64,000 bases of DNA from Nemertoderma westbladi (lineage: Eukaryota; Animalia; Xenacoelomorpha): positions 37,016 through 101,015 of the forward strand of contig JAUCBJ010004813.1 in the NCBI GenBank assembly GCA_032718475.1. The letters run 5' to 3'. Positions 13,625 to 61,369 of this stretch are shown piece by piece. The first letter of the stretch is position 1, and every line of letters begins with the position of its first letter. The notes beneath the pieces are model-generated. The model had not been told where the DNA came from. It was given only the letters and a program-made list of their open reading frames with translations, and made no database searches. The position numbers were made by a program, and so were the translations under genes.

Positions 13625-14438
13625 GGTTGATGCGGACAAATAAAAGAGAACCACTGGAGAAGAGACATGGGTTAATGTCCAGGGTCCATAATGTGAATAG
13701 TTTTCCCCGGGGCACGGGTGCTCGCGGGCGGTCTCCTTCGGGAGGCTGTAACTTTCTCTTCCTTCATCGTTTTCCTGTAATTATTGTGATCAGTGTCACA
13801 ATTAAAAGGCAAGAATGAATGATGATGTGGCGGAAAACACATCCATTGTGGTATCTCATGGATACTATCGTATATCCTCCCTCCTCTCTACTCCTCTTAC
13901 CCTCTTATACGTTGTTACTAAAGATACGACATATTTCGTCCCACCTTCTCTTCCCAACGTGCTCGGAGCTTCGGGAAACGAGCACTAAACCTCCCATCCC
14001 TTACTGTTAATCTGGATGCTAATATTGGTGTCCGCACCTCCTGTCCATGTGCCATTCTGTTGATATTTATGATATCAACTTCCACCCTCTCGTTGTTGAT
14101 TAGATAATCAACCACCAAGGATTTCCTTAAATCCACAACCGTGATACAAGGACTGAAAGGACACGCAGTTAGTAGGTGAACAACTGGTACCATTGTGTGT
14201 CATAAATCTGGTTGTTCACCTCCCTCAATGATTGGAGATATAAATCTTATAATCTGTAGAACAACTGAGGCATTGAACTGGTTGTTCCCTCATCGCACTG
14301 GGGATAAATTCAGTTGGAGATAGTCCTCGAATGTAACAATCCTCCTACTGAGATCGTATTTCTGAATATTTAGAATGCGAAATAGTTTTTTCCTCTGCTC
14401 TACCATCGCTGTCGGAGAACATATTAGGCATACAACAG
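13625..14438. other. ~814-bp unrelated sequence replacing ~2.08 kb of ORF2
   Basis: Homology to copy 2 stops at GAAGAA (13624 = 51172) and resumes at GAATATGGA (14439 = 53257). The intervening DNA has no match elsewhere in the window. Confidence 0.85.
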
Positions 14439-14442
14439 GAAT

Positions 14443-16218
14443 ATGGAGAACATTCCATATCCCTTCGTTGATACTCAGCTGATTGCCCCTTGGGCCGAAG
14501 GCCGAGGTTTCTTTCGCACTATGTATGCCAATACACCCAGCGACATTACTAAGGTACAACGGACATCCATCGGACATCTTGCCTTTCAAGAATATGGGTG
14601 GAATTTCAAAGTTGGAAATCCTACCAATTACCAGCAAGTATATGGAGATCATTACTCTCGTTTATATTTTGATGGACCATTAACTGCGCCTGGTGCCGTA
14701 TATAGCTTTATGAGTGTTCCACTTCGCCCTTCCTTAGCTATATACACGATCTTTGAAAACGCTGCACTTGCCGGTTGGCTAGCCGATGTGTGCAGTCGTA
14801 CCATACGCGCTCATCCCTTAATACTTGGAACTAAACTCGCCAAGTTAGACGAACACAATAAGTTCATACGTTTCGAATGTTTCCGGCGCTTTCTGACTCC
14901 GTTCCGTAACGTCGATAGTCAGTTCAGGGACCGCGCGCTGACCAAACTCAGTCTGAGAGACTCGGCTGCGGAGAAACTGAGTAGCGCTGGATTTGCCGTG
15001 TTTCAAGACGTTTGTATACAGAACTCACATTCATCTGTTATACAAAGACCCCGAATACCTACAGGTTATTCTGTCGTGGAAATACAGACAGTGGATCCAC
15101 TTACTGAGACAGACGCACCCACTTCGTCTATACAACTGGAGGATGAACCAGTGTGCTTGGAATCAGAAGCGATTCAGCCTACAACTTCTCGGAGCAGTGA
15201 CAATGATTATGTCATAGAGTGGTATCAAGGTCCACAGCGTCTCACAGCGTACGATTATCGACACGCCAACTACGTTTCTCGAAAACGTTGTCGATTATGC
15301 GCATCGAGAGACCACTTCACTCCTCTAGACTCGAGCGTACCTTGTTCCTATTTCCTCGAACAACCGATGATGGAAATATATTGTGCTTATTGCCGGCTTA
15401 ATAACTCTCATATATTTGCCATCTGCCCACAATTTATGACTCAATGTCACTACTGTCAACTTAAAGGACATGAAAGTTACAATTGTCCCTTTAATCGCGA
15501 TTTAGAGAGCGTAGACGAGATGATCACCCTGCGATACATCCGAGCTTGGGAAGCGAACGCCGATTTACATTGCGAATCCCGACATCGCTATTACCCTGGA
15601 CGAGCTTACGAGGGAGTTTACGCGTTCCATCCTTATCTATTCGCGTCGATTGAACAGAAAACACGCGTACCAAGTTACGAGTTAATGAAGCGTGTTGGTG
15701 AGTGTATTTCCACCAAGTTTGTCAGGAAATACCTTAGAAACGTTAACCCTAATGATATAACCACATATCACCTGATCAATTTTATCCGTCAGGACCCTGA
15801 GTATGGCGACATCTTTGTGAACTCGCATCCTGAACTACAGGAAATATCTCGGCGACCATATGAATATCGAACCCGAGAACGCGAGCTGGAGAGAACCATT
15901 AAACCGAGAAAGTTCCTCACCACTCACGGTCCACCCACCGCTAGTGTCCAGACGACCCGTCAAGGACCCGTAGGAGCTGCTGTCCTGAGACGCGCTCTAA
16001 AGGTCGTTAGACCTCGCTCTACTGAGGTTGATATTAATCAACCAGGTACTTCGACCGGCGGGTATACCGATCGTAACCCTGCGCCTTCTGATGCAATTAT
16101 ATTGCACCCTTCGCCTAGGAGCTACAGCCCTCCTCGTAAAGTGGCTCGCCCCAAAGAGAAAAGGACTCTTGCTAGCTTTAAAAAACTGCGTAAACGCCGT
16201 TCGCGCAAGAAAGACTAA
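14443..16218 (+). CDS. C-terminal 591 aa of ORF2: end of the exonuclease-like fold, CCHC zinc knuckles, basic tail
   Basis: Open frame homologous to 53261-55035; contains CRLCASRDH, CAYCRLNNSHIFAIC, CHYCQLKGHESYNC and ends KKLRKRRSRKKD. Confidence 0.8.
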   Translation: MENIPYPFVDTQLIAPWAEGRGFFRTMYANTPSDITKVQRTSIGHLAFQEYGWNFKVGNPTNYQQVYGDHYSRLYFDGPLTAPGAVYSFMSVPLRPSLAIYTIFENAALAGWLADVCSRTIRAHPLILGTKLAKLDEHNKFIRFECFRRFLTPFRNVDSQFRDRALTKLSLRDSAAEKLSSAGFAVFQDVCIQNSHSSVIQRPRIPTGYSVVEIQTVDPLTETDAPTSSIQLEDEPVCLESEAIQPTTSRSSDNDYVIEWYQGPQRLTAYDYRHANYVSRKRCRLCASRDHFTPLDSSVPCSYFLEQPMMEIYCAYCRLNNSHIFAICPQFMTQCHYCQLKGHESYNCPFNRDLESVDEMITLRYIRAWEANADLHCESRHRYYPGRAYEGVYAFHPYLFASIEQKTRVPSYELMKRVGECISTKFVRKYLRNVNPNDITTYHLINFIRQDPEYGDIFVNSHPELQEISRRPYEYRTRERELERTIKPRKFLTTHGPPTASVQTTRQGPVGAAVLRRALKVVRPRSTEVDINQPGTSTGGYTDRNPAPSDAIILHPSPRSYSPPRKVARPKEKRTLASFKKLRKRRSRKKD

Positions 16219-16288
16219 CTGTTTAGAGTATTTATGTATATTAGAAATTGTGATTTTGTATATTTTATAGACTTAAATCCCATTTTCT

Positions 16289-28953: not shown

Positions 28954-28967
28954 AGTTAAATATAAAT

Positions 28968-32229: not shown

Positions 32230-32297
32230 TAGTAAAGAGATACAAACAGGTAATAGTTAGTTAGTTAAACCTAAAAGTATAAGTGGAGCTGATTGAG

Positions 32298-37693: not shown

Positions 37694-38891
37694 TGTAAAA
37701 GCTTTTGTGGGATAACTGATTCATTTGCTTTGCTAACCAGTTCCCCCCAGTCGCTGAATACTCTAAAAAGGGATATCCAGCTAGAATAATGCAAGCTACC
37801 GGCTGATTGGCTAATTTGCTGTGCGAAGGGATCTGGGTTCTGTTCGATCGGCCAACCAGCTTAGGGAGGTTGCCTCAGCCCTGCTGTCCGCATCGGCCAA
37901 TAGAATTTGAGTGGGCGTTGATTTTGACCTATCCCAGAGCTACTGAACTGAATTTTCCTATCTCACTGCTCATCCTCTGTGTTGGACGGGAGCTTCGGGG
38001 AATAAGGGTAGTTGGTATCCTCGTATAGTCAAGTAGTCATATGATTCTTTATATGATTCTGTTGTTGTGTTCCCATTTTTCGCCATAACACCGGCTTTTG
38101 GAACAACTCTAGTAAAACTGCTTAAATTATCGAAAGTATAACTGTTATCTAATCAATCAATCAACTAATCTAACTGATCTAATTAACTCACTATTAATCA
38201 TATTGTTTGTACTGTTATGTACCGTCAGTTATTAATTGTATCTATTTGTTGATGAAATATTGCCCTTTGGAGAATACTGATAAATCACCCAAAATTCCCA
38301 ATTTTCTTGATACACTACAGGTTAGAGAGACCGGCTATATATAACAATTGCGATTTATATCAATGTGGTGTGTATTGAATCTAATGTTATTTAGCAGACC
38401 CTACATGAGTCAATTGCTGCTCTCTTTATGTGTGATCAAATTTACTGACGGTCGGCAGAATAGTGTGCATGATTGTGATTGGTAATAAAGCATTTCCTAA
38501 AGAATGCGCCTTATACTTTAATCATAAGCAGTATCGTTGCGTTTAGTATAAGTCCTAGCTCTGTTTAAATAGATAGAGCGCCACGTCCTAAAGGAACTGT
38601 TAATATTTCCCGAAAGCCAATAATATCTGTCAGAAATTAATTATTAACGATCAATCGAATAATACAGTAGGTTTACACTGCAACCTTACACTGCAATAAT
38701 AATAATTTAAGCATCCGAATTCAGCCTCCCGGGTGTAGATCCATCGGGTGAATGATCGCGCATGGGCTGGCTTCGGTAATGTTTTGTTTATTAGCATAAA
38801 ATATTGTCGTATGCTAAAGGTGTTTTAATCAACTAAAAGACATATAAATTTTGGCAGGTTAAACTGCCAAAGGTCTTCAAAAGCGCGAACA
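37694..38891 (+). repeat. 5' LTR of copy 2 (1198 bp)
   Basis: TG...CA; differs from the 3' LTR by about 4 substitutions and 2 indels seen by eye. Confidence 0.96.
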
Positions 38892-38902
38892 ATAACAGTT
38901 AT
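38892..38902 (+). promoter_or_regulatory. Non-tRNA PBS ATAACAGTTAT
   Basis: Abuts the LTR end; complementary to ATAACTGTTAT at 38138-38148. Confidence 0.75.
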
Positions 38903-41108
38903 CTATCTTATTGCAGTAAGCAATAAGGTTGCAAAATACCGTAGTGACCGGTAAATCTGAACCGGTACTTCTGTAGGTCAGTAGGCCCAACTGCCAGAAC
39001 CGGTACTTCTGTAGGTCAGTAGGCCCAACTGCCAGAACCGGTACTGCTGTATAAGTACATTAGTGTTATTCGATTTTGATTATTGTATACCGGTAGGTCT
39101 TGGTACTTAATCAGGGAACGGCCGCCCTGATTTTTTATTTGAGATTCTACTTATTTCTGTCGGTTTTATTTACTAGTAGGCTAATATTGAGCAGAAGGCG
39201 TGTGACCCTGCTCAAATTGTACAAATAATTGTAGGCTTGACTGTTGTCTGGCTGTGTTGAGTCTGGAGAGACTGCGGCGTGTGTAGAGTTTGTCTGATAA
39301 AGTGCCGTTAGTAAGTTGGGGCAGCCATATGCTGTAAGGTCAATCCCCTCTTAAAGAATAAGTCGTACTACCGTGTTAGAACGCATACTAACTAACTGTT
39401 TCAGAATCTGCATATACTGTAGTTTATTTAGGCTTGATCGTAGTCTGCCAGCGTTTTAGCCTGTGTTTGTTTGTGTGGTCTGTTCAGGTACCGTAATAGT
39501 TATTACTCAGATATTTTGTAGGCTGGATTGTTGTCTAGCTATTATTAGGTCTGAAGAGATTGCTGTGTGTGTGGAGTTTGTCTGATAAAGTGCTGTTAGT
39601 AAGTTGGGGCAGCCATATGCTGTAAGGTCAATCCCCTCTTAAAGAATAAGTCGTACTACCGTGTTAGAACGCATACTAACTAACCATTTCAGAATCTACA
39701 CGTACGGTAGTTTATTTAGGCTTGGTGGTAGTCGGCCAGCGTTTGGTTTGTATTTTGTTTGAGTATTCTGTACGGGTAGCGTAATATTTATTATTCAGAG
39801 TTTATGCGATTATTCGCAACATTCATGTCCCCAAGTTTATCCCTACAGTAATTGTGCTTGTTATACATACCGTTATAGTTAAATTAACCCCGGTACTACA
39901 CGGGGGGCTTGGCGTAGGACAAGACTGGTGACATTGTGCCCTGGTCACTCCAGCAGATGCCGTGGTTCTTTTAACTGTTCAAGTATATTTAACTACTGAT
40001 TATTTGTTATACCGGTACTTGTACCTAATTTAGGGTTTAGTGTACAGTGCTTTCCGAAGTAATTAGTGTGTAGGCAGTATATTTGTGTTGTAAAGTGGTT
40101 GATAGGCACATTCGTTAGCTCTATTAACTTCTGGGTGGGAACAATCCGTGATACATAACGTAGTACCTATAGCGATACGGTTATAGGTCGTCAGGCGGTG
40201 GTATTTTTCCTATCTGGACAACGCAGTATATTTACTACTACTTATTATTTCAAATACCGTAGTACCCTGTCTGTTGTAATAACCAGAATTCTAACCCTTT
40301 GTTAGGCTGGTTTGTAGACTTCCTGTAAAATTACCCTAAAAATTCGTACGTAATATTTTTTGTTGTGTTTAATTAGAGAATTAATCTCACCCATATCGTA
40401 AGTAATTTGTAGTATTAAGTAACTTAGGTAAATTAGAATTATCAGTTTTAGTGTCAAATAAATAGCACTTCACTGAGAGCACACAGCTTCGGTGTAGTGA
40501 CCCCAGAAATAATAACATTTATTTCAAATATTGACAAAACCCTTTTAAACGGGTATATATCTATTATAAATCAACTCAAACGATTTATAAATAGTAGGCC
40601 TGCCATACAACAACTAGGTCTCAATATCAGTTGGACTACTGCTTAAATAACGGTAATAAAGTAAGTTAAAGTAACCAAGTAACCCTAAAATATTCAGAAA
40701 TTCAATTATTCTAAAAATAATTGACATACCGGTATTTACCATAGGCTTATTATATTTATTTCTATAAATTTGAGCTGAAATCATACCGGTACTCTGTAAT
40801 TAATTCTAGTTCATAATTATACTTATATATACTATAAGTGTAAGCTGTATACCGGTATTCACTATAGGCCTATTATATATTTATATATATTTGTGCTAAA
40901 ATTATATACCGGTACTCTGTGATAAATCTAGTCTGTAATAATACTTATATATATTATAAGCATACCGGTATTCTAATATATTATATATATATCACGTTAC
41001 GCCGAGTAACGGTATCGGTAATAAATCGCTAGGCTTGCGGTCATACTGAATTACCAGACTTGCTTTAACTGAAACTATAGTAGTAGACATTCAACTGTAT
41101 AGCTAAAC

Positions 41109-44100
41109 ATGTCTGACACTCAGCAAAACCTGTCAGACAGTCTGATCGATACAACTATCTGTGACTCAGATAGGAGTGTGGAGCGATTAAGAAAGGAGTT
41201 CAGCTCACCTCCTACTGCAAAAAAGGTCATCCCTCCAGTAGTATCAGACCCTAGGCTAATCCACCATAGGTCCATCATAGGCACTCGGGCACAGGTCAAA
41301 CGGAACCAAGAGGCAGTTGTCCCATCGCAGCAACATCTTGGTCAAGAACCTACTTCCCAGCGACCCGATAGCTCCAGCAGTTCGGATACTGTAGAGCTGA
41401 CCCCCGAACGCGGAGTGCAGATGGCTGTTACAGTCTACTCGGACCCCCTTCTTACCCTTCCTGCTGCAGTGCTAACTACTATATTCATTGCAGTGGAGGA
41501 ACATCAAGCCGACTGGGCGAGGAATAAGCGAGCGACCCAAGATAATTATGCGGGATACGCCAGGGAAGAATTAATGTCTATTGTCGAGTCACAATGGAAC
41601 TTTCCCGGACTCGGACTCCCGTTGGACCTGTCCGAGGCTACTTGGGAAGATATACACAGGATGGGAGTGGCAAAAGATACAATGGATCCAGCTGTTTGGA
41701 AGAGGTCGGCATCAGGATATGTGCAGGGATTCTTCGGCTCCTTGGAGCGATTGGAAGAACAACTGTTTCGACAACCTCAAGGACCTCAAGAGCAGGAAGA
41801 GCTGCTATACCAAATACGCGAAAGAACCCTACGCATACGACTAATCCTCTCAGCCTTTGAGGAAACTTCCAAAAGAAGACAAGACACGTCGCTGCAGGTT
41901 GCTGTCAAAACTTGGTTACATCGGGTAGATCTCAAAGTACAGGAAACGGCCCAGTGGAAATCCCAGCTAGCTGAGAGATCAACCTATGAAGAACCAACTG
42001 ATGTCACCCTTTCTCAAGCGGAAAGCGAAGAGACCGCCGAGAAACCGCGAACTAGAGACGCTATCGACATTTATTTGTCCGACTATCAGCGATTCCTAGG
42101 AGACGAAGAGTTGAGGAGACGGCTGTCTGGACTTTCCCCTAATAGTGAAGGAACCAAGCTTGTGTTGGACTCAATCGATGCCGAAATGTTAGCTGCAAAC
42201 CAAGCTGAATGTGATGAACAACTCCGCCTCACTAGAGTCCGAGAAGATCAAGTAAAGAAAGAACGGATAGAGAAAAGGAAGGTAGCAGCAGCAGCGGCGG
42301 CGGAAGCAGAAGCAGAAAGAAAAGAAGCAGAAGCCGAAAGAAAAGCGGCAGAAGCAGAAGCAGAAAGAAAAGCGGCGGAAGCCGAAAGAAAAGCAACAGT
42401 GGCAGAAGCAGAACGGAGAGCGTCTGAGGAGACTATCCAACTAGAGTTGGAAAATCTGCAAGAGACGCAAGACAGCATAAATAAACAGTTTACTGCTAAT
42501 CAAATGCAGATGATGAGAAAATCTACTCCCAAGCGCCAGGGATACACATCCTCGGAGGAAGGCGAGACTACCGATCCTGAAGGCGGAGGAAATAGATCTC
42601 ATCTAAGTAGGCGTAGAAAAACGCAAATTGCCTGATTTGCCCCCAGCTGTTAGAAGACAGCTAGCTAGCACAGACTTGAGTAGTATAGAACCTACAGCCC
42701 AAAGTATTAAGGTCCAAAGACTCTCTACAATAGTTGATGAGCCTGAGATAATTAGGCCTGTCGTTCCCAAAGTCACTTCTGTGTTAGAGACCCCTGTACT
42801 TCCAGAGCTTAACTCTAAATTCCCTTTACATAGTACTACATTGCCTGTACCCGGTGGAGCAGTCCAAGAGAATATCCCTGTCCAGATAGCAGAGAGAGAA
42901 ATCAAAAACTTGTCTCCCGTCGTCCCGCGTCAGCCCGCTACTATGTTGGCGACTCCCGCTTCGGCGGTTGAGTGGGTGGAAGAGGGACGGCGGGGGATGA
43001 ATCTCCTGCTAGGACAGATGCAGGAGACTGTCCACCAACTTAAGGGAACAGTGAGGGAAGGTAGAGCAGAGTTGCAAGAAGTGCAGCAAAGTATCGCACT
43101 AGAACGCGACAAATTAGTCAATATCAAAAAGGGCATACCAATACCCCCTGTAACATTGTGTCAACCTGTTAGGTCTGAAGTATTACATGCGCAAGGTGTG
43201 GAGCCTACACGCATCTATACTGCTAGTGAAGTTGAAACTCCTATAGCAAATCCTATTAAGGGTGATTATAGACCTGTTATTAATGATATTCCCTATAGAC
43301 CTGATAATGATCCGAGAAATTTATATACCGATAATTCTATATTAAATAACACGATGGCCCAAGAAAGCTTTACGCGTCAGATGGCTAGAACCGAAGCCCG
43401 CCAAGCGGTCAAAGTGGGAGAGATCGTCAAATTCAATGGAGATGAGATGAAATGGTTACCTTTCAACGAATATTACAAAGATAGCATACAGAACTCTGTA
43501 CTATCTAACGGAGAGAAACTTAGATTTCTCATCAAGTGCTTGGAAGGACCTCCCAAGTTAATGGCGTTAAAGTTTATTGGACATCCAGAAGGATTAAGAC
43601 AAGTTTGGGATACATTAAACATCAGGTATGGTAACAAGGATAACATAGCTAAGTATTTGTATGCAAAATTAGTAGCCCCCCGACACTTCCTTAGTAGTGG
43701 GATTATAGAGTTTTCCGATGAAATTCAAGAGATCTGTAGACAACTGGACTGGTTAGGTAAGTCGCATGAATATCAGAGTTCCATGGTTATTGGAGCCGTA
43801 GTCTCTACTTTACCAAAGGGTGGAGTATGTACACGCTGGGACAAGAAAGTGTTGTACATGAATGAACAACAACGACGAAGTCCTACCATGGCTGACCTCA
43901 TGTCTTTCTTAGATGGTGAAGTCAAACTACAACTCATCAAGCAGTCCAGAGAGAAAACATCGGAAAATAAGGTAAGTGAGAAACCCACTTCTAGGAGAAG
44001 AGTAACACCGGTGTGTTACACTGACGACGGCGAAAGCCAAGCTTCCCAAGAAGAGGACAGCGGGAAAGATACAGACTGATCTTACTATGTTGACAAAACC

Positions 44101-47100
44101 TCAAAGGACGTAAGTAAATACAAGGCTCGAAACAACGATAGGAGAGAACAGGTTGCCAAGACCCCTCCTCAGTCTCCTAACAGAATGCACCGAAGAAAAC
44201 CCGAAGAAAAAACGAGAGTGCATCAAGTTAACCAAGGTAAAGTGAGTAACATCAAACCTAACTGTGCGCTGTGCGACGGGACCCACCGTTTGAGTGCGTG
44301 TGCTGAATTTCTAAAGAAATCCCTTGTAGACAGACGTACAGTCGTGTGGGACAAGCGGTTATGCTATAATTGCCTCAGACCAGGACATCAACGGCGAACC
44401 TGTTACTCAGACATAAAGTGTGCAAAGTGTGGCGCGAAACATCACATCTTGTTACACAGTGAGTTCGAACGAGATAGACAGAGTCAGGTAAGTGAGCCCG
44501 AACTACATGTCCAATTTAGTGACGTAAACGACACTGATCAAGAGTCCGAAATGGAAGGATTCTATACTGACGAATTCTCCGACGCCAATGAATCCTGTTA
44601 TCTAATAAACACCACGGTGTATCGAGCACTTACTTACGAAAAGGACATCAACGATGAGTTTCCCCAAACTACTTTCGCCAAACAACCATCTTGGAAAGCT
44701 CCAACTTCCAACGTAGGAATCAGAGAATTTCCTGTAGTTCAGGTAAGAGTTCACGGTCTTAACAAAAGCTACATAGTGAACGCCCTCCTGGACTCCGGCA
44801 GCACAGGAACATTCATCGATCAAGAACTAGCCGAAGATATCTTTGCTGGACAACCCAAGTTCCGGACTAAATTGAATATGTCAGGAATTATGCAGGTTTG
44901 GAAATCTACCCTAACGGCAGATTACTATGTAGGTGTGTTGTCCACCCCCCAGGATAAGTTAGGAACACAAGGTATAAGGTCAGTAAAAATGGTGGCTATA
45001 AAGAACTTTGCTACTACTCAAGCAGACCTTTATAATTGGGACGAAGATGAGAGCGTCCAACATCTTAAGATACCTCGATTCCAGACAGATTATCCTGGAG
45101 TGCAAATACTTATCGGCCAAAACGCGCACGAGGCGCTCGAAACATTAGAGAAACGGCCTGCTCAACCACAACCACTGCAAACCTATGCGGTAAGAACTAG
45201 AGTAGGTTGGTACTTTACTGGCCCTTCCCGTAGAACTCTCGAAGAGAGAATGCCACACGAACAAATATATCAAGTAAACGATTGGGAAGTGGAAAGCAGT
45301 GAGGTGGACGAACTAACTGAAGGAACACCATACTCCTCGGATAATGACGACATCTACCAACTCTTCGAAGAAGAGAACACAATTGACCTACTTTCAGAGA
45401 ATCAAACTTGGAAAAACCAAGCGAACCTATGTCAACTGATTCGCCCAACGGAATCCATTATTTATAATGACGAACTTAATGACGAGGTAGAGCGCTACAA
45501 CGCTAGAACTTGGGACGAACTCGCCGTACGATTCTTTACCCAAGAATTAGTAGAACCTAATTCATACGACAAAGCCCTGTCGATAGAAGAAGAAAGAGCC
45601 CAGCAAATCCAGGAAACAACCACACGTTTTTTAAAAGATCAAGGTAGATATGAAATCGGACTACCCTTCCGAAAACGGGAACCTAGATTTATAAATAATA
45701 GACCCTTGGCTGAGAAAAGAATCAATCAATTACATCGACGTCTTACGGCAAACGCTTCAGCTAAGGAAATGTACCAAACTCAGTTGAAGAAATTTATCAC
45801 AAAGGGATATGCGGAGCGGGTACCGGAAGGAACTCCAATAACTGAAAGAACTTATTATCTAACACATCATTACGTTCCCAAACCCGGTAAACCCCATGAA
45901 GTACGAGTCGTATTCGATGGCTCTGCTCTATATATGGGCCAATCCCTTAATTCCGAGTTGTTACCAGGACCCAATTTACTCCAATCTTTGTTGGGAATAC
46001 TTTTGAGATTAAGACAATATTCCATCGCGTTCGCTTCCGATATTGAAGGAATATTCTTACAAGTCAAGGCGCTGGAGAGAGATAGAGACAGCCTGAGATT
46101 TCTGTGGTGGCCTGAAGGAGACCTCAACCAGAAACCGGTAGAGTACTGGATGACCATCCAGGCTTTTGGGATCATATCTAGCCCTTCCAACGCCTGCTCC
46201 GTAGTGCGAACCACTGCGAATGACAACAGAGACTCCTTCTCAAAGGAAGTGATAGACAATATAAAACGTAATATATACATGGACGACAATTTAAGGTCCC
46301 TTCCATCAGTAGAAGAAGCCATAGCTGTCGCGAAAGGAACGGTAGAGTGTTTGAAAAGAGGTGGATTTCGACTAACGAAATTCACTAGCAACTCCCGTGA
46401 GTTTCTGGAAGCCATACCGGTAGTAGACCGGGGATCAAAAGACGTCGACTTAATACATGACGATCTTCCGGAAACCAAGATGCTTGGCTTGAAGTGGGAC
46501 ACAGAAAGAGATATCCTGTTTTTTCAGCTAAAACAGCGAGATAATCCAGTTCGGACCAAACGGATTTGTTTAAGTATCCTGAGCACTTATTTCGACCCAT
46601 TGGGATTTATTAGCCCAGTTATATTGATTGCTCGGAGTTTAGTACAACAGATGTGGCTTGAAAACCACTCATGGGATGATCCGCTTAAGGGAGAACTGTT
46701 GAAGAAATGGATGAAATGGGAAGATTCTCTACCTGCCATTGAGAACTTTATAATTTCCCGCGCATATTTTGGACATGTTCTTCCGACGTATTCCTATCAA
46801 CTCCATGTGTTTGGAGACGCCAGCGACATGGGAATAGGTATAGTAGCATATCTGCGAGTCGAAACTCCGGATGGGATCAAAGTCGCCTTGGTTACCTCTA
46901 AGGCACTGATTAACAACAAGTTAAAGGTTCCTCGAGCGGAGTTAAAAGCGGCTTTATACGCTACAGCCATCGGCCGGAACGTAATGGAACAAATCGATTA
47001 CCCACTGGAGAAAACGGTTTATTGGACCGACGCTTTACTCGTGTTGGAATATCTAACCAATGAAGTCTGTCAGTTCAGCGTTTTTGTTACTAACAGGGTA

Positions 47101-49161
47101 GCTATTATTCTTAGTCGCACAAAGATAGATCAATGGAGACATTGCCCTGGTACGATTAATCCAGCCGATATCGCCTCCAGGGGAGCAACTCCACAGGAAC
47201 TGATAGATACTCCAGATTGGTTGGGTGGACCCGACTTCCTGAGCAAGGAAGAGGACGAATGGCCTCCTCACCTTACTACGGCGGAAATTCGACAAGCCAA
47301 GGGAGCGGAGACCGTCAAACCTAAAACCCGGGCGAGTAAATCGAAGTTATTTAAACCGACTATCGATCTATCTGTATTACATGTTTCCGGAAACGATGAT
47401 TTGGATCCACAATCCCTCGCTATAAATAAGTCTGTTGCGGAAATTCGAGATAGAGATTGGAAATCTGGAATACCAGACGTCTCGCAAGGAATCTCACCCC
47501 TGCTGCAGAGAGCGATGCATCATTACAGTTCCTGGAATCGTCTCTGTAAAGCCGTCACATACTTAAAGAGATGTTTTCACCATCACTACTCCAGGAAGCA
47601 GACCACTAGTGATCCTGCTCCAGTGACATCTGCGCAAGTTCATGTTATTAAAGATCTACCTAAGTACAAGATATCAGACCGGTTTCTAAAGGAGAAGATC
47701 AGTTACCAGGAGCATGAAGAAACTAATAAGCAGCTACTGAGACTCCTGCAATGCTATGAGGATTCCGATAGGTATTTTCTGCTATTAAGAAATCCGCAGA
47801 TGCGCTTAAGGGATCGATTCTCGAGCACAATGATAGATGGGTTAATACGTGTTGGAGGAAGACTCACCAACGCCCCATTATCCTTTGATACTAAATTCCC
47901 TATACTCATTAGTAATCTTGAAGTACAAATCAAGATGATTGTAGATGTTCACAGTAAGCTTTATCATGCTGGAAGAGAACGAGTTCTTAGCGAAATTCGA
48001 ACTCGCTATTATTTTGATAAACCCCGTAAGGCTCTGAACCAAGTTCTTAGGAACTGCATACCCTGTAGGAAAGCATTCAGTAGGCCTTTAACACAGCGAG
48101 AGGCAGAATTACCTAGGGAACGAGTAAGCTTCTATGAACCACCTTTTACTAATACTGGTGTAGATTTATTTGGCCCTATTGAAGTATATCGTGCGAGGAC
48201 TATAGTCAAGAGATGGTGTGTCATCTTCGTGTGCATGACTTGCAGAGCCATCCATCTCGATATGGTGAACGATCTATCTACCAACAGTTTCGTCTTAAGT
48301 CTACGACGACAGATCGCTCGCTTCGGTACGAGTAATACCATGAGATCGGACAAGGGAACGAATTTCATTGGTGCCAACAACGAAATACAGGCTTACGTAA
48401 AGGACTGGAACCAAAGACAGGTGGATGACCAGCTAAGGATAACAGCGTCTAGCTGGACCTTCAACGCCGCCAACGCCCCTTGGTGGGGAGGAAGTTGGGA
48501 GAGATTAATTAGAAGTGTTAAGACCGCATTTCACTTTATAGTGCCATGCCGTGCGTATCTCACCGACGAACTTTTGCGGACGTTAATGGAGGAAATAGCT
48601 GCCTATCTCAACGAGAGACCGCTTATGCCAGTCTCATCGAGTCCCGATTCCCTGGAAGCGCTAACACCTGCGCACTTCCTACTGAAGAAACCGGTAGCCA
48701 TGCTCCCACGATCGGAGATTGCCGACGGAGACGAATACTGCCGTCGAACTTGGCAACTTATGCAGTTGCTATCCCGTCGTTTCGCTGACCATTTCGAGAA
48801 ACATTACCTGCCCATGCTACAACTTCGAACTAAGTGGTTTGCGCAGCAGGAAAACGTCAGCACCGGAGATATGGTACTTATTGTAGATCCAGACCTCCCA
48901 CGTAAACGGTGGCAGACAGGTCGTATCATCGAGACCCATATCTCGGAGGATGGTTTAGTGCGTTCAGTAGAACTCATCGTTATGAGGCGTAACTTCAAGA
49001 AGCCCGGTATAATCTTTGAGACGCAACAACTCAATCGCCCAGTTGGTCGTTTATGTTTACTGGAAAGAGACAGAGAACTCTCTGGAAACTATGGAAGACA
49101 AGACACTCTTCCCACGACCACCTCCCTAATTCCTCAAACATCTAGGGACTCCCAAACGTGA
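41109..49161 (+). pseudogene. Gag-Pol of copy 2, with one frameshift (~42623, 11-nt deletion) and one in-frame TGA (44077-44079)
   Basis: ORFs 41109-42635, 42628-44079 and 44185-49161 are colinear with the 2717-aa protein; all catalytic motifs are retained. Confidence 0.95.
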
Positions 49162-50782
49162 TACGTCTGGAGTGGGTGTATGACTATGTTATTTATCTAT
49201 TTTATTACATTTTATATGCGAACTTTATTATGTACTTTATTATAATCGTTTTTATTCAATTTTTATTTAGTAGAATGTTATTTTAGGGATTATTTAGTAG
49301 ATTAGTGCAATATATTAGTGTTTATTACGTACATAATTACTATAATATATATTTAGTGCGACGGCGAGAAATAATTATTTTTCTCTTCCCTTACTGTCCG
49401 TATCATATTATAAATACGTGACTACAGTAAGATGAAATGTCCGTACTTCTTAAAGTACAATAAAGCCACTACTATATTTAAGTATTATTGGTAGGCAGAG
49501 TATTAGGAATGCAAAGTTCAGATCCTCGTGTCTCGGCTAAACCAAGCTCTGGGTAGACCTTGGAAACGACTTGCCTCTTCACACTGACATTGCTTCGTGC
49601 GATATTGCTCTTCTACCTTATAACAAATAATACATATAGTAGCGTGGTGTCCCTCTAACAGTAGCGTAAATCGCAAATAAATCTGTTAAACTTTTTGACC
49701 ATCTGTAATTCTAGTCGATTAAGATATCGTGGCACCCACCGATATACTTGAAAGACAAATTCTAGAATCAGTGGTTAACGTCCCCAGACAAGTTCTGGAA
49801 TAAATCGGTGCTCATCCTAAATATTAATTTAATATTTATTAAAATCTGTAAAATCCCGATCCTTTAAGATTTCTAGTCAATTAAGATATCGCAGTATTTA
49901 CCGATATTCTTAGAAGGACTATTTTATAGAATTAAGGATCCTGAGTTCCCAGACATGCTCTGGAATAAAATTTGTGTCAATTTAACATCAAATAATAAAA
50001 TTCACGGGAATAAATTTAAATTCATATTCAAATGAATTTCATAAATTGTCATTTTGTGCAATTTATAACATTCCCAAAATTCCAGTAATTAATAGATCAT
50101 GGGAGCGGAGATTCATATTGAGTGTACTAGAGTGTAAGAATCCCCAACATACAGTCAATAGCCGATAAAATTTATAAAATCATGCATAAAGAGGATATTG
50201 ACAATTAAAGAATTACTATTAAATAGCATCCCAGATCTGTATGCATGAGAATTACCCTAATTCTACCGCTAGTTTTCCATAATGTCACCATGGCAACACC
50301 CACGCTAGAATTAGAAGCAAGTTAAAGGAACAATAAAAAGCTTGCCCCATTGCGTAGCATAAGAGTATACATAGCGCACTATTAGTATCCAAGGATACAT
50401 AGTAATAACGTGACATTCTGGAAGACACTGACTAACGGACAAATGGCATGCATGTGTGCAGTAAGTAATGATTGTATGGAATTTGTGCGTTTATAGGTGA
50501 ATGATACTACTAAAGTGTGTTTACAGTAACTAATCGCAATTGTAAAGTAGCCCTAACTCTACCGAGATAACCTCAAGTGGATTCAAGCCTTTGGGACGGA
50601 CAATGGTGGGACTTGTGCCGGTTATCGTTGTCGTGCTGTTGCTACATGTTGGCGTAAACACTGCGACAGCGGTACATCGGCGCTGAGAAACCCACTGTCC
50701 GGGGGCAAAGCCTAGTAGGCAGCGACGCCCGCTTGCCTAAAATATTAACTCATATTGATATTAATAAACTCAGATAGCAGAT

Positions 50783-53700
50783 ATGACGGAATTGATAGAA
50801 GATGACCTTGGTATCAGGGAGCGATATACTCTACCTTTACAAGCGTTTGTGGATAGCTTGATACGCGGTGAAGCCGATCCGACTATTACGGAGGACGATG
50901 GTCGTTATATCGAACCGCCGATGTCCCAGGAACAACTTACGCGTGAATTGGACTATAGAAAATTCACCGCTCGCTATACGAATCGTAATGGTACGTATAT
51001 GGACTTCTTAACTACCGGCCATCCTACCGATTTACATGATACGGAAGATGTAGACACCGAAAGGGAAGTGGTTTTATTTAAATATCATGCCCAGCGGAAT
51101 CGTAATGATAAACCGAGAATAGAACACGAGAACTCTATTCGCAACCTACTCGACAGAGAAAACGTTGAAGAACCCGATAAGCGTATCAACTTCAACGACT
51201 ACTTGGAATTTTTGAGAGAAACCTATCTCAATATTGCCAGTCAACAGAACCTAGAGACTCGATATCCTCAAGGTATACATCACGATCCCATGGTAGAACT
51301 CAAACGACTCTATTTCACCATGATGTATCTTACCGCAGATCGTCCACTACCTGTTGTCCCGGACAGCTTTGAACAAATGGAAGAGTATTGCAAAACTGGA
51401 GAACGATCACCCGCGTTTCCTCTGCAGGACGTACGTCTTTGGTATTATTGTGACTCATGTCCTAGACCTAACCAGCAATCGGAAAGACATAAACATCCGC
51501 GGAGACGTTGTGCTAAACACAGTTTTACGCGTTATACTTACGGGAGTTTCGAACGAAACCTGTTCGACGTATCACCTACGATCGCCCATCTAAAACGATC
51601 GCTAAATAAACCCATGATCAGAGTTCCGGAATACTCGGTCAGGCCTCCTCATTTCCCAGTGAGACCTCAAACTCTTGATCCTAACAGTATCACTGATCCT
51701 CCCGAGTTATACTCACTGTTCAAAGATTTGGTGTTACCCGAGCAGTTAATCGGTGATGTTCCCGCGGTAGGTTCGTTAGATATTCGACCATCCTATTTAA
51801 CCGGATTGGGACGCGGGCATCTAACATCCCCATTTAATCCTTACAATCGGCCAGGATTAACTCCGATACAACCTGCCACGGAAGTCGAGGAGAGTGTCAT
51901 CAGAAACGCTTTAGACGCCATCCGACAGAAAATCGGAAAGGGAACACAGGATTTTCTAGAAAAACGTAAATTACAGCAGCAGGTCCAATCGGTGAAAGAG
52001 TTAGCCTTGCCGCAGTTTGATAGAGAAATCCAAAACCTCGAAGAGGACATCGAGCTTGGACGTACGTATTCTCTACAGGAGTTTCTAGAAGAACGCTTAC
52101 AGAAACAAGCGGAGGAAAATCAACTAGAGGAGAAACATACGGAAATGGATGAGAGAGAAGAAGCCGCTTTAGCCCAACCCGAAGCTCAGATACTCATAAC
52201 CGATCTCTACTCTAAAACCGTCCGTCATCCATCGATGGTTCCGCATTTCGGAGACAAACTCTTTGCAAAAATACAACCCCAACCGGTTGATATCAGCATA
52301 AGATCGCAAAATCTTATCACTGACGCTCCTATGTTACAGCGTCCGCCAATCGAGGCCGCTCGAGTTGACGGTATACTCGTTGAACCTCCGGACAATCGAG
52401 CGGATCTTGTCCGTCGTATGGTACACGATGTCAACATACGCGCTAGACCTTTACAGAACTCTTTTTATGGAATTAAAGACCACCCTTATTACGTTAATCT
52501 GACTCAATATTATATGGTAAAACCAGAAGATCCTACGCATAATTTAAAGTTTCTACCACTAATAAATCCTCTGGACATTGTCGAACTCGAACAATTGCAA
52601 AAACATCTGGATCAGTTAGTAAAGGTAAACTCATTTCGAAAACCATATAACGTTTCTCGAATAGAGAAGGATACAGAACCTCCTTATAATCTCGATGGAT
52701 TTATTAAAACTCGATTAGTCCATTGGAATCTAGACGTATTATTCGAGGAGGAGAAAATCCAAAGATATGGAAATGTGGAGACGTATACCACTCGATACAT
52801 GAAGTATAGTGATCTCCCTGACGCTAATCAATGCGCCACCTTGTGGCATCCGGTAGGGATGACCCTCGAGAACGCCACCAAAGAGTGGAATGAAACTCTT
52901 AATATTATTGAGATGTATGGCGTTGTTACTTACGATAACGAAGGTAGCGTTCCAATCGGAGAATTAGGAACTACGCGCATGATACACATACGCGGATTAG
53001 CTGGTTCCACTCACGTGTTTACGCGAGCGTGTTCCGACGTGATCGATTATTCCTTTGAAACTCTCACCGAAACGCAAAAGAATCTCCGACATGGACAATT
53101 CGAACTCGCACAGCATTACGTCATTGATACCGAACGCAAACCGGCCATGGGTATCGATGGATCGATGTTACCCCAGCCCGTTCTCGAGATGTTATTCAAC
53201 GAAAGAATCATTAAAATCGGCTCAGCTGTTTACGGAGATCTTCAAAACGACTTTCTGAATATGGAAAATATCCCCTATCCTTTCGTGGATACTCAGCTGA
53301 TAGCTCCTTGGGCCGAAGGCCGAGGTTTCTTTCGCACCATGTATGCTAATGCGTCTAGCAACATTACAAAGGTGCAACGAACTTCCATCGGACATCTTGC
53401 TTTTCAGGAATACGGATGGAATTTCAAGGTCGGAAATCCCATCAACTATCAACAAGTATACGGAGACCATTATTCTCGATTATACTTTGACGGACCGTTG
53501 ACCGCACCTGGTGCCGTGTATAGCTTCATGAGTGTTCCACTCCGCCCCTCCTTAGCTATCTACACGATCTTCGAAAATACCGCACTTTCCGGTTGGCTAG
53601 CCGATGTGTGCAGTCGTACTATACGCGCCCATCCATTAATCCTTGGGACCAAACTCGCTAAGCTAGATGAACATAATAAATTCATCCGCTTTGAATGTTT

Positions 53701-55035
53701 CCGACGATTTTTAACCCCGTTTCGCAACGTGGATAGCCAATTCAAAGACCGCGCTTTGACCAAGCTCAGCTTAAGAGACTCGGCTGCGGAGAAGTTAGAT
53801 AGCGCTGGATTTGCTATTTTCAAAGACATTTGTATAATAACCTACACTCCTCTGTTATCCAAAGACCTCGAATCCCCACCGGTTATTCTGTCGTGGAAAT
53901 TCAGACGGTAGGTCCACTTGAGGAGACGGCCATGCCTACCTCAACTATACAAGGGGAAGACGAACCCATATGTTTAGAATCTGAAGAGATTCAGCCCCCC
54001 ACGTCTCGGAGTAGCGATAGTGACTACATATTGGAATGATATCAAGGTCCACAGTGTCTTACTGTGTATGATTATCGCCATGCCAATTATGTTTCTCGAC
54101 AACGTTGTCGGCTGTGCGCATCGAGAGACCATATTACGTCTATGGACACCAACGATCTCTGTTCCTATTTCCACGAGCAACCGTCGATGGAAATCTATTG
54201 TGCATATTGTCGGCTTAATAATTTGCACATTTTTGCTGTCTGCCCCCAATTTATGACTCAATGCCATCATTGTCAATTAAAAGGACACGCCAGCTTTGAT
54301 TGTCCCTTTAATCATGATTTAGAGAGCGTAGATGAAATGATTGTACTACGTTATATCAGAGCTTGGGAAGCGAACGCTGATTTACATTGTGATTCACGCC
54401 ATCGCTATTACCCTGGACGCGCTTACGAAGGAGTTTATGCGTTCCATCCTTATTTGTTTGCCTCCGTCGAGCAGAAATCACGCATATCAAGTTATGAACT
54501 ACTGAAGCGCGTTGGAGAATGTATTTCAACCAAATATGTACGCAAATTTCTCAGGAGCATTAATCCGAGTGACATCTATTCTTACAACTTAATAAACTTT
54601 ATCCGTCAAGACCCTGCTTATGGAGACTTATTTGTCAACTCACACCCCGAGTTACAGGAAGTATATCAACGGCCTTACGAGTACCGAGCCCGCGAACGCG
54701 AGTTGGAAAGAACCATTAAACCAAGGAAGTTTTTAACTGCCTATGGTCCACCCACGGCCCTCGTTCTGACCACTCGTAAAGGACCCGTAAGAGCGGCTGT
54801 CTTGAAACGAGCTCTCAAAGCCGTTAGACCCCTCTCCCCGGACGTTGATGTCAATCAACCCGGTACTTCGACCGGCGGATACACCGATCGTAATCTCATA
54901 CCTTCTGATGCAATCATATTGCACCCTTCACCCAGGAGTTATAGCCCTCCTCGTAAAGTGGCTCGCCCCAAAGAGAAAAGGACTCTTGCTAGCTTTAAAA
55001 AACTGCGTAAACGCCGTCCGCGCAAGAAAGACTAA
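50783..55035 (+). pseudogene. Extra ORF2 (~1,417 aa reconstructed): DEDD/WRN-type exonuclease-like domain, CCHC knuckles, basic tail; 1-nt deletion at ~53836 and TGG>TGA at 54037
   Basis: ORFs 50783-53911, 53830-54039 and 54064-55035 join by comparison with copy 1. Motifs VVTYDNEG, LPQPVLEMLFNERIIKIGSAVYGDL, FVDTQLIA, SIGHLAFQEYG, PLTAPGAVY. Confidence 0.85.
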
Positions 55036-55113
55036 CTGTTTAGAGTATTTTTATATTTTAGAAACTGTGATTTTGTATATTTTATAGACTTAAATCCCAT
55101 TTTCTGGGAGCGG

Positions 55114-56306
55114 TGTAAAAGCTTTTGTGGGATAACTGATTCATTTGCTTTGCTAACCAGTTCCCCCCAGTCGCTGAATACTCTAAAAAGGGATATCCAG
55201 CTAGAATAATGCAAGCTACCGGCTGATTGGCTAATTTGCTGTGCGAAGGGATCTGGGTTCTGTTCGATCGGCCAACCAGCTTAGGGAGGTTGCCTCAGCC
55301 CTGCTGTCCGCATCGGCCAATAGAATTTGAGTGGGCGTTGATTTTGACCTATCCCAGAGCTACTGATCTGAATTTTCCTATCTCACTGCTCATCCTCTGT
55401 GTTGGACGGGAGCTTCGGGGAATAAGGGTAGTTGGTATCCTCGTATAGTCAAGTAGTCATATGATTCTTTATATGATTCTGTTGTTGTGTTCCCATTTTT
55501 CGCCATAACACCGGCTTTTGGAACAACTCTAGTAAAACTGCTTAAATTATCGAAAGTATAACTGTTATCTAATCAATCAATCAACTAATCTAACTGATCT
55601 AATTAACTCACTATTAATCATATTGTTTGTACTGTTATGTACCGTCAGTTATTAATTGTTTGTTGATGAAATATTGCCCTTTGGAGAATACTGATAAATC
55701 ACCCAAAATTCCCAATTTTCTTGATACACTACAGGTTAGAGAGACCGGCTATATATAACAATTGCGATTTATATCAATGTGGTGTGTATTGAATCTAATG
55801 TTATTTAGCAGACCCTACATGAGTCAATTGCTGCTCTCTTTATGTGTGATCAAATTTACTGACGGTCGGCAGAATAGTGTGCATGATTGTGATTGGTAAC
55901 AAAGCATTTCCTAAAGAATGCGCCTTATACTTTAATCATAAGCAGTATCGTTGCGTTTAGTATAAGTCCTAGCTCTGTTTAAATAGATAGAGCGCCACGT
56001 CCTAAAGGAACTGTTAATATTTCCCTAAAGCCAATAATATCTGTCAGAAATTAATTATTAACGATCAATCGAATAATACAGTAGGTTTACACTGCAACCT
56101 TACACTGCAATAATAATAATTTAAGCATCCGAATTCAGCCTCCCGGGTGTAGATCCATCGGGTGAATGATCGCGCATGGGCTGGCTTCGGTTAATGTTTT
56201 GTTTATTAGCATAAAATATTGTCGTATGCTAAAGGTGTTTTAATCAACTAAAAGACATATAAATTTTGGCAGGTTAAACTGCCAAAGGTCTTCATAAGCG
56301 CGAACA
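55114..56306 (+). repeat. 3' LTR of copy 2 (1193 bp)
   Basis: TG...CA; preceded by the PPT and followed by the TSD. Confidence 0.96.
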
Positions 56307-56892
56307 AATAAGATTGATCATTATACTGTATTATAGTTGAATTACATTTTTTACTTGCATGCAGTGCATACTTCACATTTACCATGTATAGGAATTGTTC
56401 AATATATCTTATCTATCTTATCTTATCATACCGGTACGGTACTGCTGTACAGTACATACTGTTCAAGTACGAAATTGCAGAATAATAATTTGACACCACC
56501 TAGCGGATTAATATATCATTGTATATCAAACGAATACATTTATAGCATTGGGTATGGGGTCCGAGCCACGAAGTTGGCGGAGTCTTTGCTAACTGACACT
56601 ATCTCTTAGGGGGGTAGGTCAATTATGGCAAATAGTTCATTCAATAATGGTAATGTATGTCATCATCGTCGCTACGATTTGGATTTACTATAACTTCGTC
56701 GGATTTAAAGCTGTCGAGTCGAAAATTAGTAGGAATCAATAAGAGCATAAGTTTAATTTCTTTTAGGGACTTTCAGATTCCATCAAATCATCAGTGTCTC
56801 GCTAGAGGGCTACATGTATAGAAATTAAATATCCTCACATTTCTTTGTTTTAAACCCGTTCTAGCTGAAACTTGGCATATTTGTACTAGACC

Positions 56893-58689
56893 TGTGATGG
56901 GATCCCCGAGTTGGCGAGGGAATCCCTCGTCTTTGTTTTGGTTAGTCTTGTTTTGTTTTTCTTTGCCTTGGTTCAATATGCGTCGCCGCGTCCGCTTGCT
57001 GTGGCTGAATGACTGAAGGCCGAAGGCCGGTTATAATAAAAGAGTGTGGTGTTAATGTTGTTTATCTCTGATAAGTATACAAGTACTGGTAGTATAGCAC
57101 AATCAGTAATCACAATGACCTCAGACAACGACGACGGTTGAAAACCGTTCGACTTCTGCTCACCCAATATACCAACTAAAGTACAATCGACAGAGTAAAC
57201 GGTTATATATTACATGGGACACATTAACTACCTAGGGTATTGGCTAACCAGTGAATGCGCTGTTATTGGACACATGCTGCCTCTCCATTGGTTGATATAT
57301 CCCCTTGGCCAAACCTCCCTTCCCCTGTTCCTATGCTAGCTTCTACCCTGAGATGAGCTGTGCGCTGGCATATCTCCCTGTAAAAGCTTTTGCGGATCTA
57401 GCTAGTTATTTTCCCTGCAAAGTACTCTGTAGGTGTTTTAGCGGACATAAAAAGCCGTTTCCTTACTTTACAGGTGTTTTAGTGGACATAAAAAGCCATT
57501 TCTTCTGTATGTGTACTTTAGCGGACATAACTAGCGATTTTATGTCGCAATACGCCAAAATACTCTTGATACAGTGCAGTTCAGATGACGACATCTATCA
57601 GCTGATATGTCCACGTATAGCTTTTCTTTGTTCTTTGTTTGGCTCGACCAATCAGAGCGATTTTCATTTTATTTGCACAGAGGCCTCCGGGAAATCGCGC
57701 AATGCATTATGGTCTTTGTTTACCTTTTTTCCTGAGCCCCGAACATCGACTGTGGAATTATTCTGTGTTTCAGACTTTAGCCAAACATTAGAACGGCTTT
57801 GATCATAGAAACGTATAACTGTTATTCTATCTATCTACCACTTATCATATCATAACTATACGTACCTTTCACCGCATTATTTTACTGCTATTTACTGTCG
57901 GTTATTAATTGTATCAGTTGATGGAATATTGTTATATTTGGAGAATATCGATAAATAATCAGAAAACCCCAATCTTCTTGATATACTGAAGGTTAGAGAG
58001 ACCGGTTACATATAGCAATTGCGACTTACATTATAGTGGTTTTGGAGTGAATTGAATGCTATTTCATAGACCCTACATGTGTCAGTTGCTGTTCTCCTTA
58101 TATATGATTAAAATTAGTGAAGGTCGGCAGATCAGTGTGCAGCAGTGTGCGGTAGTGTGCATGAGTGTGATAGATAACAAAGCATTTCCTAAAGAATGCG
58201 CTTTATACGTAAATCATTAGCCATCCCGTTGTGTTTAGTGTAAGTCATAACTCTGTTTACATACTTAGAGCGCCACGTCCTAAAGGAACTGTTAATATTT
58301 CCCGAAAGTGAATAATATTTGTCAGAGATTATATATTAACGATCAATCGAATAGTACAGTAGGCCTACACCGCAATAAGGTCAGAGCATCCGAATCCAGT
58401 CTCCCTTAACCGTGGGTGAATGATCGCGCATAGGCTGGCTTCGGCTAATGTGTATCAAATACTTGTTATAGGCTAAAGTCGATTTATAACCTAGAAGACA
58501 CCTAAATTTGGCAGGTTAAACTGCTAAAGGTCTAAAAGCGCGAACACTCCCTGTGGCTGACAATGTATATTGCCTTTGTTGGTGGTTAGGTGACATTATA
58601 TTCGTAATGTCACTTAATCAACTATAATTGGTAAAAAGCCACTTTCCCCATTTTCCGCTGGGTAGTGCAGCGAATTGGATCCGCTCACA
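56893..58689 (-). mobile_element. Solo LTR of family B, interrupted by a family A solo LTR
   Basis: TSD AGACC (56888-56892; 58690-58694); colinear with 21009-21598 on both sides of the insert. Confidence 0.9.
57379..58546 (+). mobile_element. Solo LTR of family A, third subfamily with a divergent U3
   Basis: TGTAAAAGCTTTTG...GCGCGAACA; TSD CTCCC (57374-57378; 58547-58551). The empty site with a single CTCCC is visible in the family B LTR at ~21455. Confidence 0.93.
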
Positions 58690-59936: not shown

Positions 59937-60179
59937 GTAAGTTGGATAGTTGGAATATGTGCCAAAACCCAAAAACAGTGACAACACTCAGCCATAGCGA
60001 AACGTTTGGGGACAACACTCAAATGTCGGGACCTCACTCAAATCATGTAATTCAGTACTCTGCAATACAGCTCACCAGTTACCTGCCTACTTGTAGACCT
60101 GAACAGTGTTGTGTACTGTAATACTGTAGTACTGTTGTTTAATCTTGAAGTGTCCAGTGTCTCTCGCTCACGTAAGTTC

Positions 60180-61150
60180 TTTCATTATATGGGATTCCTG
60201 CTGAAATTATTGCAGCAATCAGATTAGTAAACAATGGTTCGATGACATTTGTGTCTGCTGTTGACGCAGAACAATTCGAAGTGTTATGGGGCGTCCTCCA
60301 GGGCGACACACTTGCGCCATTCTTATTCAGAATTGTGGTTGATTATGTTCTCCGCATGTCCTTAGCTCATCATAATGATGATGGGGTGATGATAACTCCA
60401 CATACTGGCTCCAGAATCAGAATCAGAATCACGAGAGGCAGCCCAACGGCTCATCAGCTTATTAGAACGGACTGCTTCTAGTTTGATCTTTTTATTAACT
60501 CTAAAGAGTACAAAATTTTGACAGTTAACTTTGAAAGTCCTCAAAAAATCTTAGATCGGATGAGCATAAGCTCAAAGGATGGTATGCTTGAGCATGTGGA
60601 CGACAACTGTTATCTGGGATCATTGATCCGGAAGTCAGACGACCTTCGAATACGTAAGGTGAAAGGCATGGGTAGCCTTGAATAGGCTTTCCAGGATTTG
60701 GAAGTCACCAAGAATAAAACGGAACCTTAAGGTCCGAATATTTAGAGCAGCAGTGGATAACTGCAAAGGACATCAAATCTGTGGATGCAATCTTTCACAA
60801 GAATGCTGCGCTGGGTTCATTGTATCAAGTCAAATGAACACATCTCAATCAGACTCTATACAACATTCGATGTGTTGTATTAGTCTCCCCTACATTGCTT
60901 TATCCGTGAGGACCAGTCAGTGCATAATGTTGTGCTTTGGCAGCCTCATGGAATGAATAAGAAAGGTGGACAGCCCATGACTTTCTTGAGACGCCTTTGA
61001 AGATGCGGATAATCTAGCAAATGTCATGGGTGATAGGGAGTTGTGTCAGCGCAATTTTGTCTATAAGCCGGCACAGCATCCTAATATAATATATGAAATA
61101 TATATATAATGCAGCTGCAATGCAGCATGTCGATCGTAGTTTAGTATTAG
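60180..61150 (+). mobile_element. Degenerate RTE LINE fragment (intronic)
   Basis: VLQGDTLAPFLF and NRLSRIWKSPRI; same 3' tail as 31220-32229. Confidence 0.85.
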
Positions 61151-61369
61151 TAGGGCTAGATAGGGTTAAACGTACTAATATTGAAAGGTCTTATCTGACC
61201 TATGACTTATTTGTTCCTTGTTGCAGAATGTCAATTACATGTACAAGCACACCACTTACTTGGAACTTAATCTTATACTTATATGATCACTCATTTCCTG
61301 AGGACTGTGCACATTTTGGTCTTCTCGGTGATAATAAAAAATAAATACAAACACAAGATGCATCCTGTA

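Follow-up and report, generated by a model that had tools for sequence, protein, structure and literature searches.

A BEL/Pao retrotransposon with a predicted RNase D/WRN-type exonuclease-like domain and zinc knuckles in its second open reading frame

The element, its two copies and ORF2

The window, by which we mean the whole stretch of 64,000 nucleotides of Nemertoderma westbladi DNA that was analysed (contig JAUCBJ010004813.1, positions 37,016 to 101,015), contains two copies of one LTR retrotransposon, copy A (about 1-17470) and copy B (37694-56306). Their main features are as follows.

37694..38891, + strand: copy B, 5′ LTR (TG...CA); 1,189 of 1,193 aligned bases agree with its 3′ LTR
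41103..49161, + strand: BEL/Pao gag-pol of copy B, from Pfam, broken near 42607-42635 and at 44077-44079
50783..53911, + strand: ORF2 of copy B from its first ATG (open frame 50768-53911)
54040..55035, + strand: ORF2, C-terminal part; carries a basic tail as well as three CCHC knuckles at 54106-54303
55114..56306, + strand: 3′ LTR of copy B, from the LTR comparison
14428..16218, + strand: copy A, C-terminal half of the exonuclease-like domain plus knuckles, in a single 596-aa frame

Copy B spans 18.6 kb. Because its LTRs are nearly identical (99.7%) and a 5-bp target duplication, AATAA, lies on both flanks (37689-37693 and 56307-56311), it must have inserted recently. A Pfam search gave, in order and all above cut-off, DUF1759 in gag and Peptidase_A17, Integrase_H2C2 and DUF5641 in pol; this set of domains places the element in BEL/Pao and not in the Ty3/gypsy-type setting in which it had been discussed earlier. 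Copy A, which is 82.5% identical to copy B over 13 kb, has a gag-pol consisting of one 2,728-aa frame (3398-11584). Divergent contigs fall on the window in thousands among public runs (28,993 in run X1), which argues that the element family is abundant in the host organism. Two unusually long regions with internal repeats, a 5′ leader of 2.2 kb (38892-41100) and an intergenic region of 1.6 kb (49162-50782), are kept in both copies.

ORF2 of copy B is cut from its C-terminal part by a break in the frame near 53837. Since the corresponding frame of copy A runs through, and since contigs from all four of four runs show a length difference near 53837 that agrees with copy A, we infer that the natural ORF2 product is an unbroken protein of ~1,420 aa, made up of an N-terminal region, the exonuclease-like domain, the knuckles and the basic tail. 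A Pfam search of the 700-aa N-terminal region gave no match; a Cys/His cluster in it (C-x2-C...H...C...H; 51455-51520, about aa 230-251) may be a further zinc site. We agree with the original prediction that this reading frame is not env: its highest 19-residue hydropathy is 1.28, a TM-like stretch is absent and Pfam gives no match. The same prediction had spoken of both copies, which is correct for the C-terminal half of the domain only. Copy A has ~815 unrelated bases (about 13625-14438) in place of the 2.1 kb of ORF2 that match 51173-53256, and it is in this stretch that Exo I and Exo II lie.

The shared C-terminal half of the domain is under strong purifying selection. Over its 193 codons, copies A and B show 12.5 replacement and 80.5 silent differences (dN/dS 0.021), compared with dN/dS values of 0.087 in pol, 0.13-0.15 in gag, 0.082 in the knuckle region and 0.16 in the ORF2 N-terminus, all of them rough since silent sites are close to saturation. 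Of 302 differences 40 were listed; within 52933-53782 there are 17 of these 40, and all but three are synonymous (14 of 17).

Homology of the ORF2 domain to RNase D

52865..53647, + strand: RNase D/WRN-type exonuclease-like domain, about aa 700-960 of ORF2, from homology searches

All the motifs by which this domain had been recognised are present, in the order given and in the one ORF2 frame, starting at 52916 (YGVVTYDNEG), 52973 (TRMIHIRG), 53009 (THVF), 53168 (LPQPV...GDL), 53279 (PFVDTQLIA), 53384 (SIGHLAF...NFK) and 53492 (GPLTAPGAVYSFMS). A Pfam search for the exonuclease domain in the window gave no match. Support for an RNase D/WRN-type domain in the env position comes from NCBIfam, ESM features, a blind profile search and hhalign. 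Among the 18,950 NCBIfam models only two matched, both of them RNase D (E 0.0032 and 0.028). ESM features gave 0.91 for the window domain, with PF01612-bearing clusters making up 22 of 30 matches; in the best two clusters PF01612 is carried by 28-51% of members. The Exo II block goes far beyond chance: an RNase D position matrix gave it 33.7, while the runner-up among 1,002 positions had -10.1, and hhalign of the window domain against a 75-sequence RNase D/PolA alignment scored 40 over Exo II (maximum of 60 shuffles, 21.6; reversed sequence, 13.3).

A single homologue, P0001, was found among 1.84 billion proteins searched (E 5e-6). It is a singleton on a 9.4-kb contig and is about 30% identical to the window protein. 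Its domain gave 0.94 with ESM features, 25 of 30 matches lying in PF01612-bearing clusters, and its hhalign alignment to RNase D spans all three motifs and sets Y-x3-E on Y-x3-D. A blind search of 401 bacterial genomes with a profile of just two sequences, the window protein and P0001, gave at E 0.05 a total of 55 matches, of which 53 cover the Exo II segment. When the 30 best were examined, 29 proved to lie inside RNase D-like domains. Searches for further homologues found none among 1,661 candidates, only P0001 itself among 7,989, and none among 2,076 at E 10. Contig scans likewise found none, and a phage and plasmid search gave only matches at E 6-10. No significant match came from PDB sequence searches, whether the query was the window sequence by itself or had two or three rows; RNase D 1yt3 stood at E 0.67. 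A profile in which 66 of 69 rows were RNase D-like pieces was circular and is excluded from the evidence; it was only with this profile that TbRND, the RNase D of Trypanosoma brucei, came up. Judged from these sequence comparisons, the ORF2 domain is a real and selected homologue of the RNase D/WRN type, and we regard a fold of this type as very likely.

P0001 also carries three knuckles at its C-terminus, in the same order as in the window protein and with a score reached by none of 1,000 shuffles. Exonuclease-like domain and tandem CCHC knuckles are found in one chain both in copy A (14428-16218) and in P0001. At the level of sequence, the fusion to three knuckles, which had been overlooked before, is seen in both proteins.

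The candidate active site

52934..52942, + strand: Exo I, D723-x-E725, inferred; the best-supported register, with D760 as its rival
53237..53239, + strand: Exo II, D824, the Asp that follows the helix-strand-helix core, from profile, hhalign and matrix
53561..53575, + strand: Exo III, Y932-x3-E936, moved from YSFMS at 53519

Exo III had originally been read at YSFMS, with Ser in the place of the Asp, and a possible alteration of catalysis, or a role in RNA binding only, had been derived from this Ser. The alignment with P0001 favours Y932-x3-E936 and thereby a change of Asp to Glu; in this register four carboxylates and the Tyr are kept, and the argument from the Ser falls away. Exo III of P0001 reads YTIFEN (Y-x3-E-N), and the RNase D matrix ranks it first among 621 positions. 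In a significant pairwise alignment, PLCHDQLYYIYCEN of P0001 pairs with PLRPSLAIYTIFEN at +21 (9/31 identical), whereas its score against the segment chosen earlier, PLTAPGAVYSFMS, is -7 (4/31 identical). YSFMS itself occupies the place of the W-before-PL of RNase D, and the prolines after it stand at a place that should be helical. Y-x3-E is found in P0001 as well as in copies A and B, the alternative register is Y-x3-V, and the canonical Y-x3-D is absent; thus the domain is to be read as a variant and not as a canonical DEDDy nuclease. The Asp position of Exo III is probably Glu936.

The P0001-window alignment matches D723, E725, D824, Y932 and E936, all five. In Exo I scoring against P0001, D723 is joint best at 14 and D760 stands at 1; the two strands after D723 follow at a spacing that matches P0001, and alignment A5 and the long-gap mode both set Exo I at D723. 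With default MAFFT, on the other hand, D760 is taken as Exo I in 46 of the 48 settings, and when RNase D rows are included in the long-gap mode, Exo III falls on Y918, as in the original prediction. The Exo II block is the sole motif significant by itself in the window protein; neither Exo I (shuffle p 0.35 for D723/E725 alone) nor Exo III is significant alone. On balance, the likely site is D723/E725/D824/Y932/E936, a D-E-D-E-y variant, in which Glu in the place of the Exo III Asp may impair catalysis. Other placements were rejected. VIDTER (D787) lies 14 residues ahead of the LP helix, too few for two strands, and was dropped as Exo I; alignment A4 has a register at odds with the P0001 pairwise alignment, alignment A3 is misaligned, and free-floating RNase D blocks were placed at wrong positions.

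Structure prediction by AF2 gave a pLDDT of 28 from the single sequence and of 50.6 with P0001, copy A and 66 central RNase D-like pieces, the latter model being confident only in the aligned middle (a 52-residue alignment). Over aa 700-754 the aligned model has a helix and strands at low confidence, and it sets both candidate Exo III tyrosines in strands with pLDDT below 50. Foldseek on the AF2 model put EXD2 first (E 0.16, rmsd 21), which is below significance, and its EXD2 and WRN rows are partly circular because the model is confident just where the RNase D-like alignment lay. The best VIA match had a Z of 4.5, and the matches cover helix-plus-sheet only.

Expression, possible functions and related systems

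38138..38148, + strand: predicted self-primer, at the inferred 5′ end of the transcript, complementary to the primer-binding site
38892..38902, + strand: primer-binding site directly 3′ of the 5′ LTR, without a TGG tRNA-type start
38320..38327, + strand: predicted splice donor inside the LTR, GT in both copies, with the same sequence at 55734 in the 3′ LTR
50554..50566, + strand: predicted branch point (CTAAC) and AG acceptor upstream of ORF2, kept in copy A

The self-primer matches its binding site over 11 bp in copy B; at the homologous place copy A has a match of 12 bp and other sequence (410-421 with 1177-1188). These complements are exact, covary between A and B and are paired in the folded RNA, with chance expectations of about 1e-3 and 2e-4. 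They bear out the self-priming site to which the original prediction had alluded. A complement of at least 10 nt between the sequence after the 5′ LTR and an LTR-internal site is the criterion of self-priming in PMC6317226, and on this measure copies B (11 nt) and A (12 nt) belong with the self-priming elements. In this respect they resemble Tf1/sushi, Tcn1 and TAR copia, which are of gypsy and copia lineages; the portion of PMC6317226 at hand has no BEL/Pao case, and our literature search found no report of self-priming in BEL/Pao. Rfam and tRNA searches gave no matches. A short hairpin stands just after the self-priming site in both copies, and a third, partial LTR of the family with the self-primer sequence, along with inverted, decayed gag-pol fragments, occurs at 57789-58546 and 17564-18243.

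ORF2 is probably made from spliced RNA, as the predicted donor and acceptor suggest. A splice-like joined form is present in two contigs of run X5 (type guessed DNA; 80% likeness), that is in one of four runs, and the predicted spliced leader has four ATGs ahead of that of ORF2. Another contig of X5, of high depth, joins 51145 to 53954 and so connects the N-terminus of ORF2 to the knuckle region, skipping the exonuclease. As a splice this junction was rejected, canonical sites not being present in both copies, and we read it as a deletion. The existence of a high-depth form that lacks the domain fits an exonuclease supplied in trans. The loss in copy A is a separate one, which starts 20-30 bases further on.

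The reading we favour, at a probability of roughly 45%, is that ORF2 is a conserved accessory gene encoding an active 3′-to-5′ RNA trimmer, perhaps directed against host small silencing RNAs. The ~1,420-aa protein would be made apart from Gag-Pol, from the spliced RNA, and would act in trans. Its knuckles would grip single-stranded RNA and feed the 3′ end, as in trypanosome RNase D, to a putative two-metal site of D723, E725, D824 and E936 with Y932, and its main target would be host small silencing RNAs, trimmed from their 3′ ends. We consider catalytic activity somewhat more probable than not. That host small RNAs are the main substrate is a more doubtful proposal. TbRND serves as its model, being an Exo plus CCHC enzyme of which an excess depletes guide RNAs (PMC7797062); strong conservation, on the other hand, is not what one expects an arms race to leave behind. 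The fullest version of this reading we think unlikely to hold in all its parts: in it, an animal retrotransposon has its own D-E-D-E-y exoribonuclease, which destroys small RNAs, bears a zinc-knuckle clamp and is convergent with the RNase D of trypanosomes; a BEL/Pao element that primes itself produces the enzyme from a spliced RNA, and deleted copies make use of it in trans.

A nuclease fold that has lost activity and is kept for RNA binding, in the manner of EXD1, Maelstrom or Egalitarian, and which with the knuckles would escort, localise or shield the element's RNA, is a possible but rather doubtful alternative. Exo III has Glu rather than Asp in both known members, the site would be incomplete if Exo I were D760 or Exo III were YSFMS, the domain has long insertions relative to RNase D, and inactive DEDD derivatives that bind RNA are noted in PMC5408684. 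Two proteins only ~30% identical nevertheless both keep the four acidic positions and the Tyr, and the rotifer ORF3s, which also have an Asp-to-Glu change (DEED), are judged possibly active in their description. An active enzyme serving the element's own replication seems unlikely. In that case the transcript would be cut downstream of the 11-12 nt self-primer, its unpaired 3′ tail trimmed to the duplex, and reverse transcriptase would start from there. In its favour, the self-priming site is a real one that shows covariation between copies A and B, the C-half of the exonuclease is more conserved than pol, and RNase D-type enzymes are described as processing the 3′ ends of structured RNAs. Against these points, the co-occurrence of exonuclease and self-primer is known from one family, and a high-depth form lacks the domain, though complementation in trans is possible. 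Tf1-type elements self-prime and are not known to have an extra exonuclease, which also counts against primer trimming. A local or chance likeness, in which a 45-residue RNase D-like piece sits in some other fold or in a degenerate env, is very improbable: Exo II stands alone in significance and AF2, Foldseek and VIA gave no assembled model, but several independent methods converge on RNase D/PF01612, P0001 aligns across three motifs, and a hydrophobic segment is absent.

The favoured reading, of an active RNA trimmer, has to be set beside several known systems. In motif order and spacing the ORF2 domain resembles the PF01612 group (WRN-exo, EXD2, MUT-7, EXD1, Egalitarian, RNase D), from which it differs in its Y-x3-E-N Exo III, in insertions of about 25-35 residues and in lying below Pfam detection. 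Its K-[IV]-G strand before Exo II resembles the WRN/EXD2/MUT-7 pattern. Among retroelements, the original prediction named bdelloid rotifers and nematode Cer1 as precedents for DEDDy reading frames. The rotifer case stands, DEDDy ORF3s being described in the Juno and Vesta LTR elements and in Athena/Terminons (PMC5408684, PMC6431247 and PMC5718144); for Cer1 we found no such report in the literature. As described there, ORF3 is like ORF2 an extra post-pol frame with an RNase D-like exonuclease, no TM segment and one Asp changed to Glu. The LTR hosts in rotifers are, however, described as retrovirus-like lineages, in contrast to BEL/Pao here, and the motif is DEED as against a probable DEDE in ORF2. 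CCHC knuckles, of which ORF2 has three, have no mention in the available text of PMC5408684.

TbRND is a DEDD exonuclease that acts on small RNAs and, when overexpressed, depletes guide RNAs. It shares with ORF2 the order of an exonuclease-type domain and C-terminal CCHC knuckles, which in TbRND replace the HRDC domain. TbRND is, however, a cellular protein; it has four knuckles on a linker of 28 aa, and its Exo III has Asp (PMC7797062). ORF2, in contrast, belongs to a retrotransposon and has three knuckles ~150 aa downstream of its domain, Glu in Exo III and a 700-aa N-terminal region of no known family; the likeness is at the level of the fold. The Dada DNA transposons of Laccaria and Ectocarpus also have a transposon-borne DEDDy domain, and Dada transposases have a CCHC motif; there the domain lies inside a DDE transposase, is canonical DEDD, and is proposed to process DNA ends (PMC3706591).

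Our literature search found no report of an exonuclease in BEL/Pao, for which annotation may already exist in Repbase or in supplements, nor any earlier report on this genome or sequence. DEDDy reading frames in retroelements are thus already known; what appears new from sequence comparison is the BEL/Pao host, the probable D-E-D-E-y site and the knuckle fusion. When retroelement DEDDy genes were described in 2017, they had no demonstrated activity or role. With the present case their range comes to include another superfamily of LTR elements; new features are the strong purifying selection seen when diverged subfamilies are compared, the unusual site and the module for RNA binding. Because the element has a defined self-primer, it offers two separable candidate substrates, host small RNAs and its own primer. 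Should the enzyme prove to counter silencing by small RNAs, it would be relevant to the way in which transposons of animals survive and multiply under such silencing.

The remainder of the window contains, on the minus strand at 32298-34766, an intronless TRIM-like ORF of 822 aa with RING and B-box and an internal 27-bp repeat array. LINE reverse-transcriptase fragments lie at 31254-32264 (minus strand) and 60176-61674, a 21-bp tandem array at 23156-24064, and a tandem duplication of 1,277 bp at 27679-30226.
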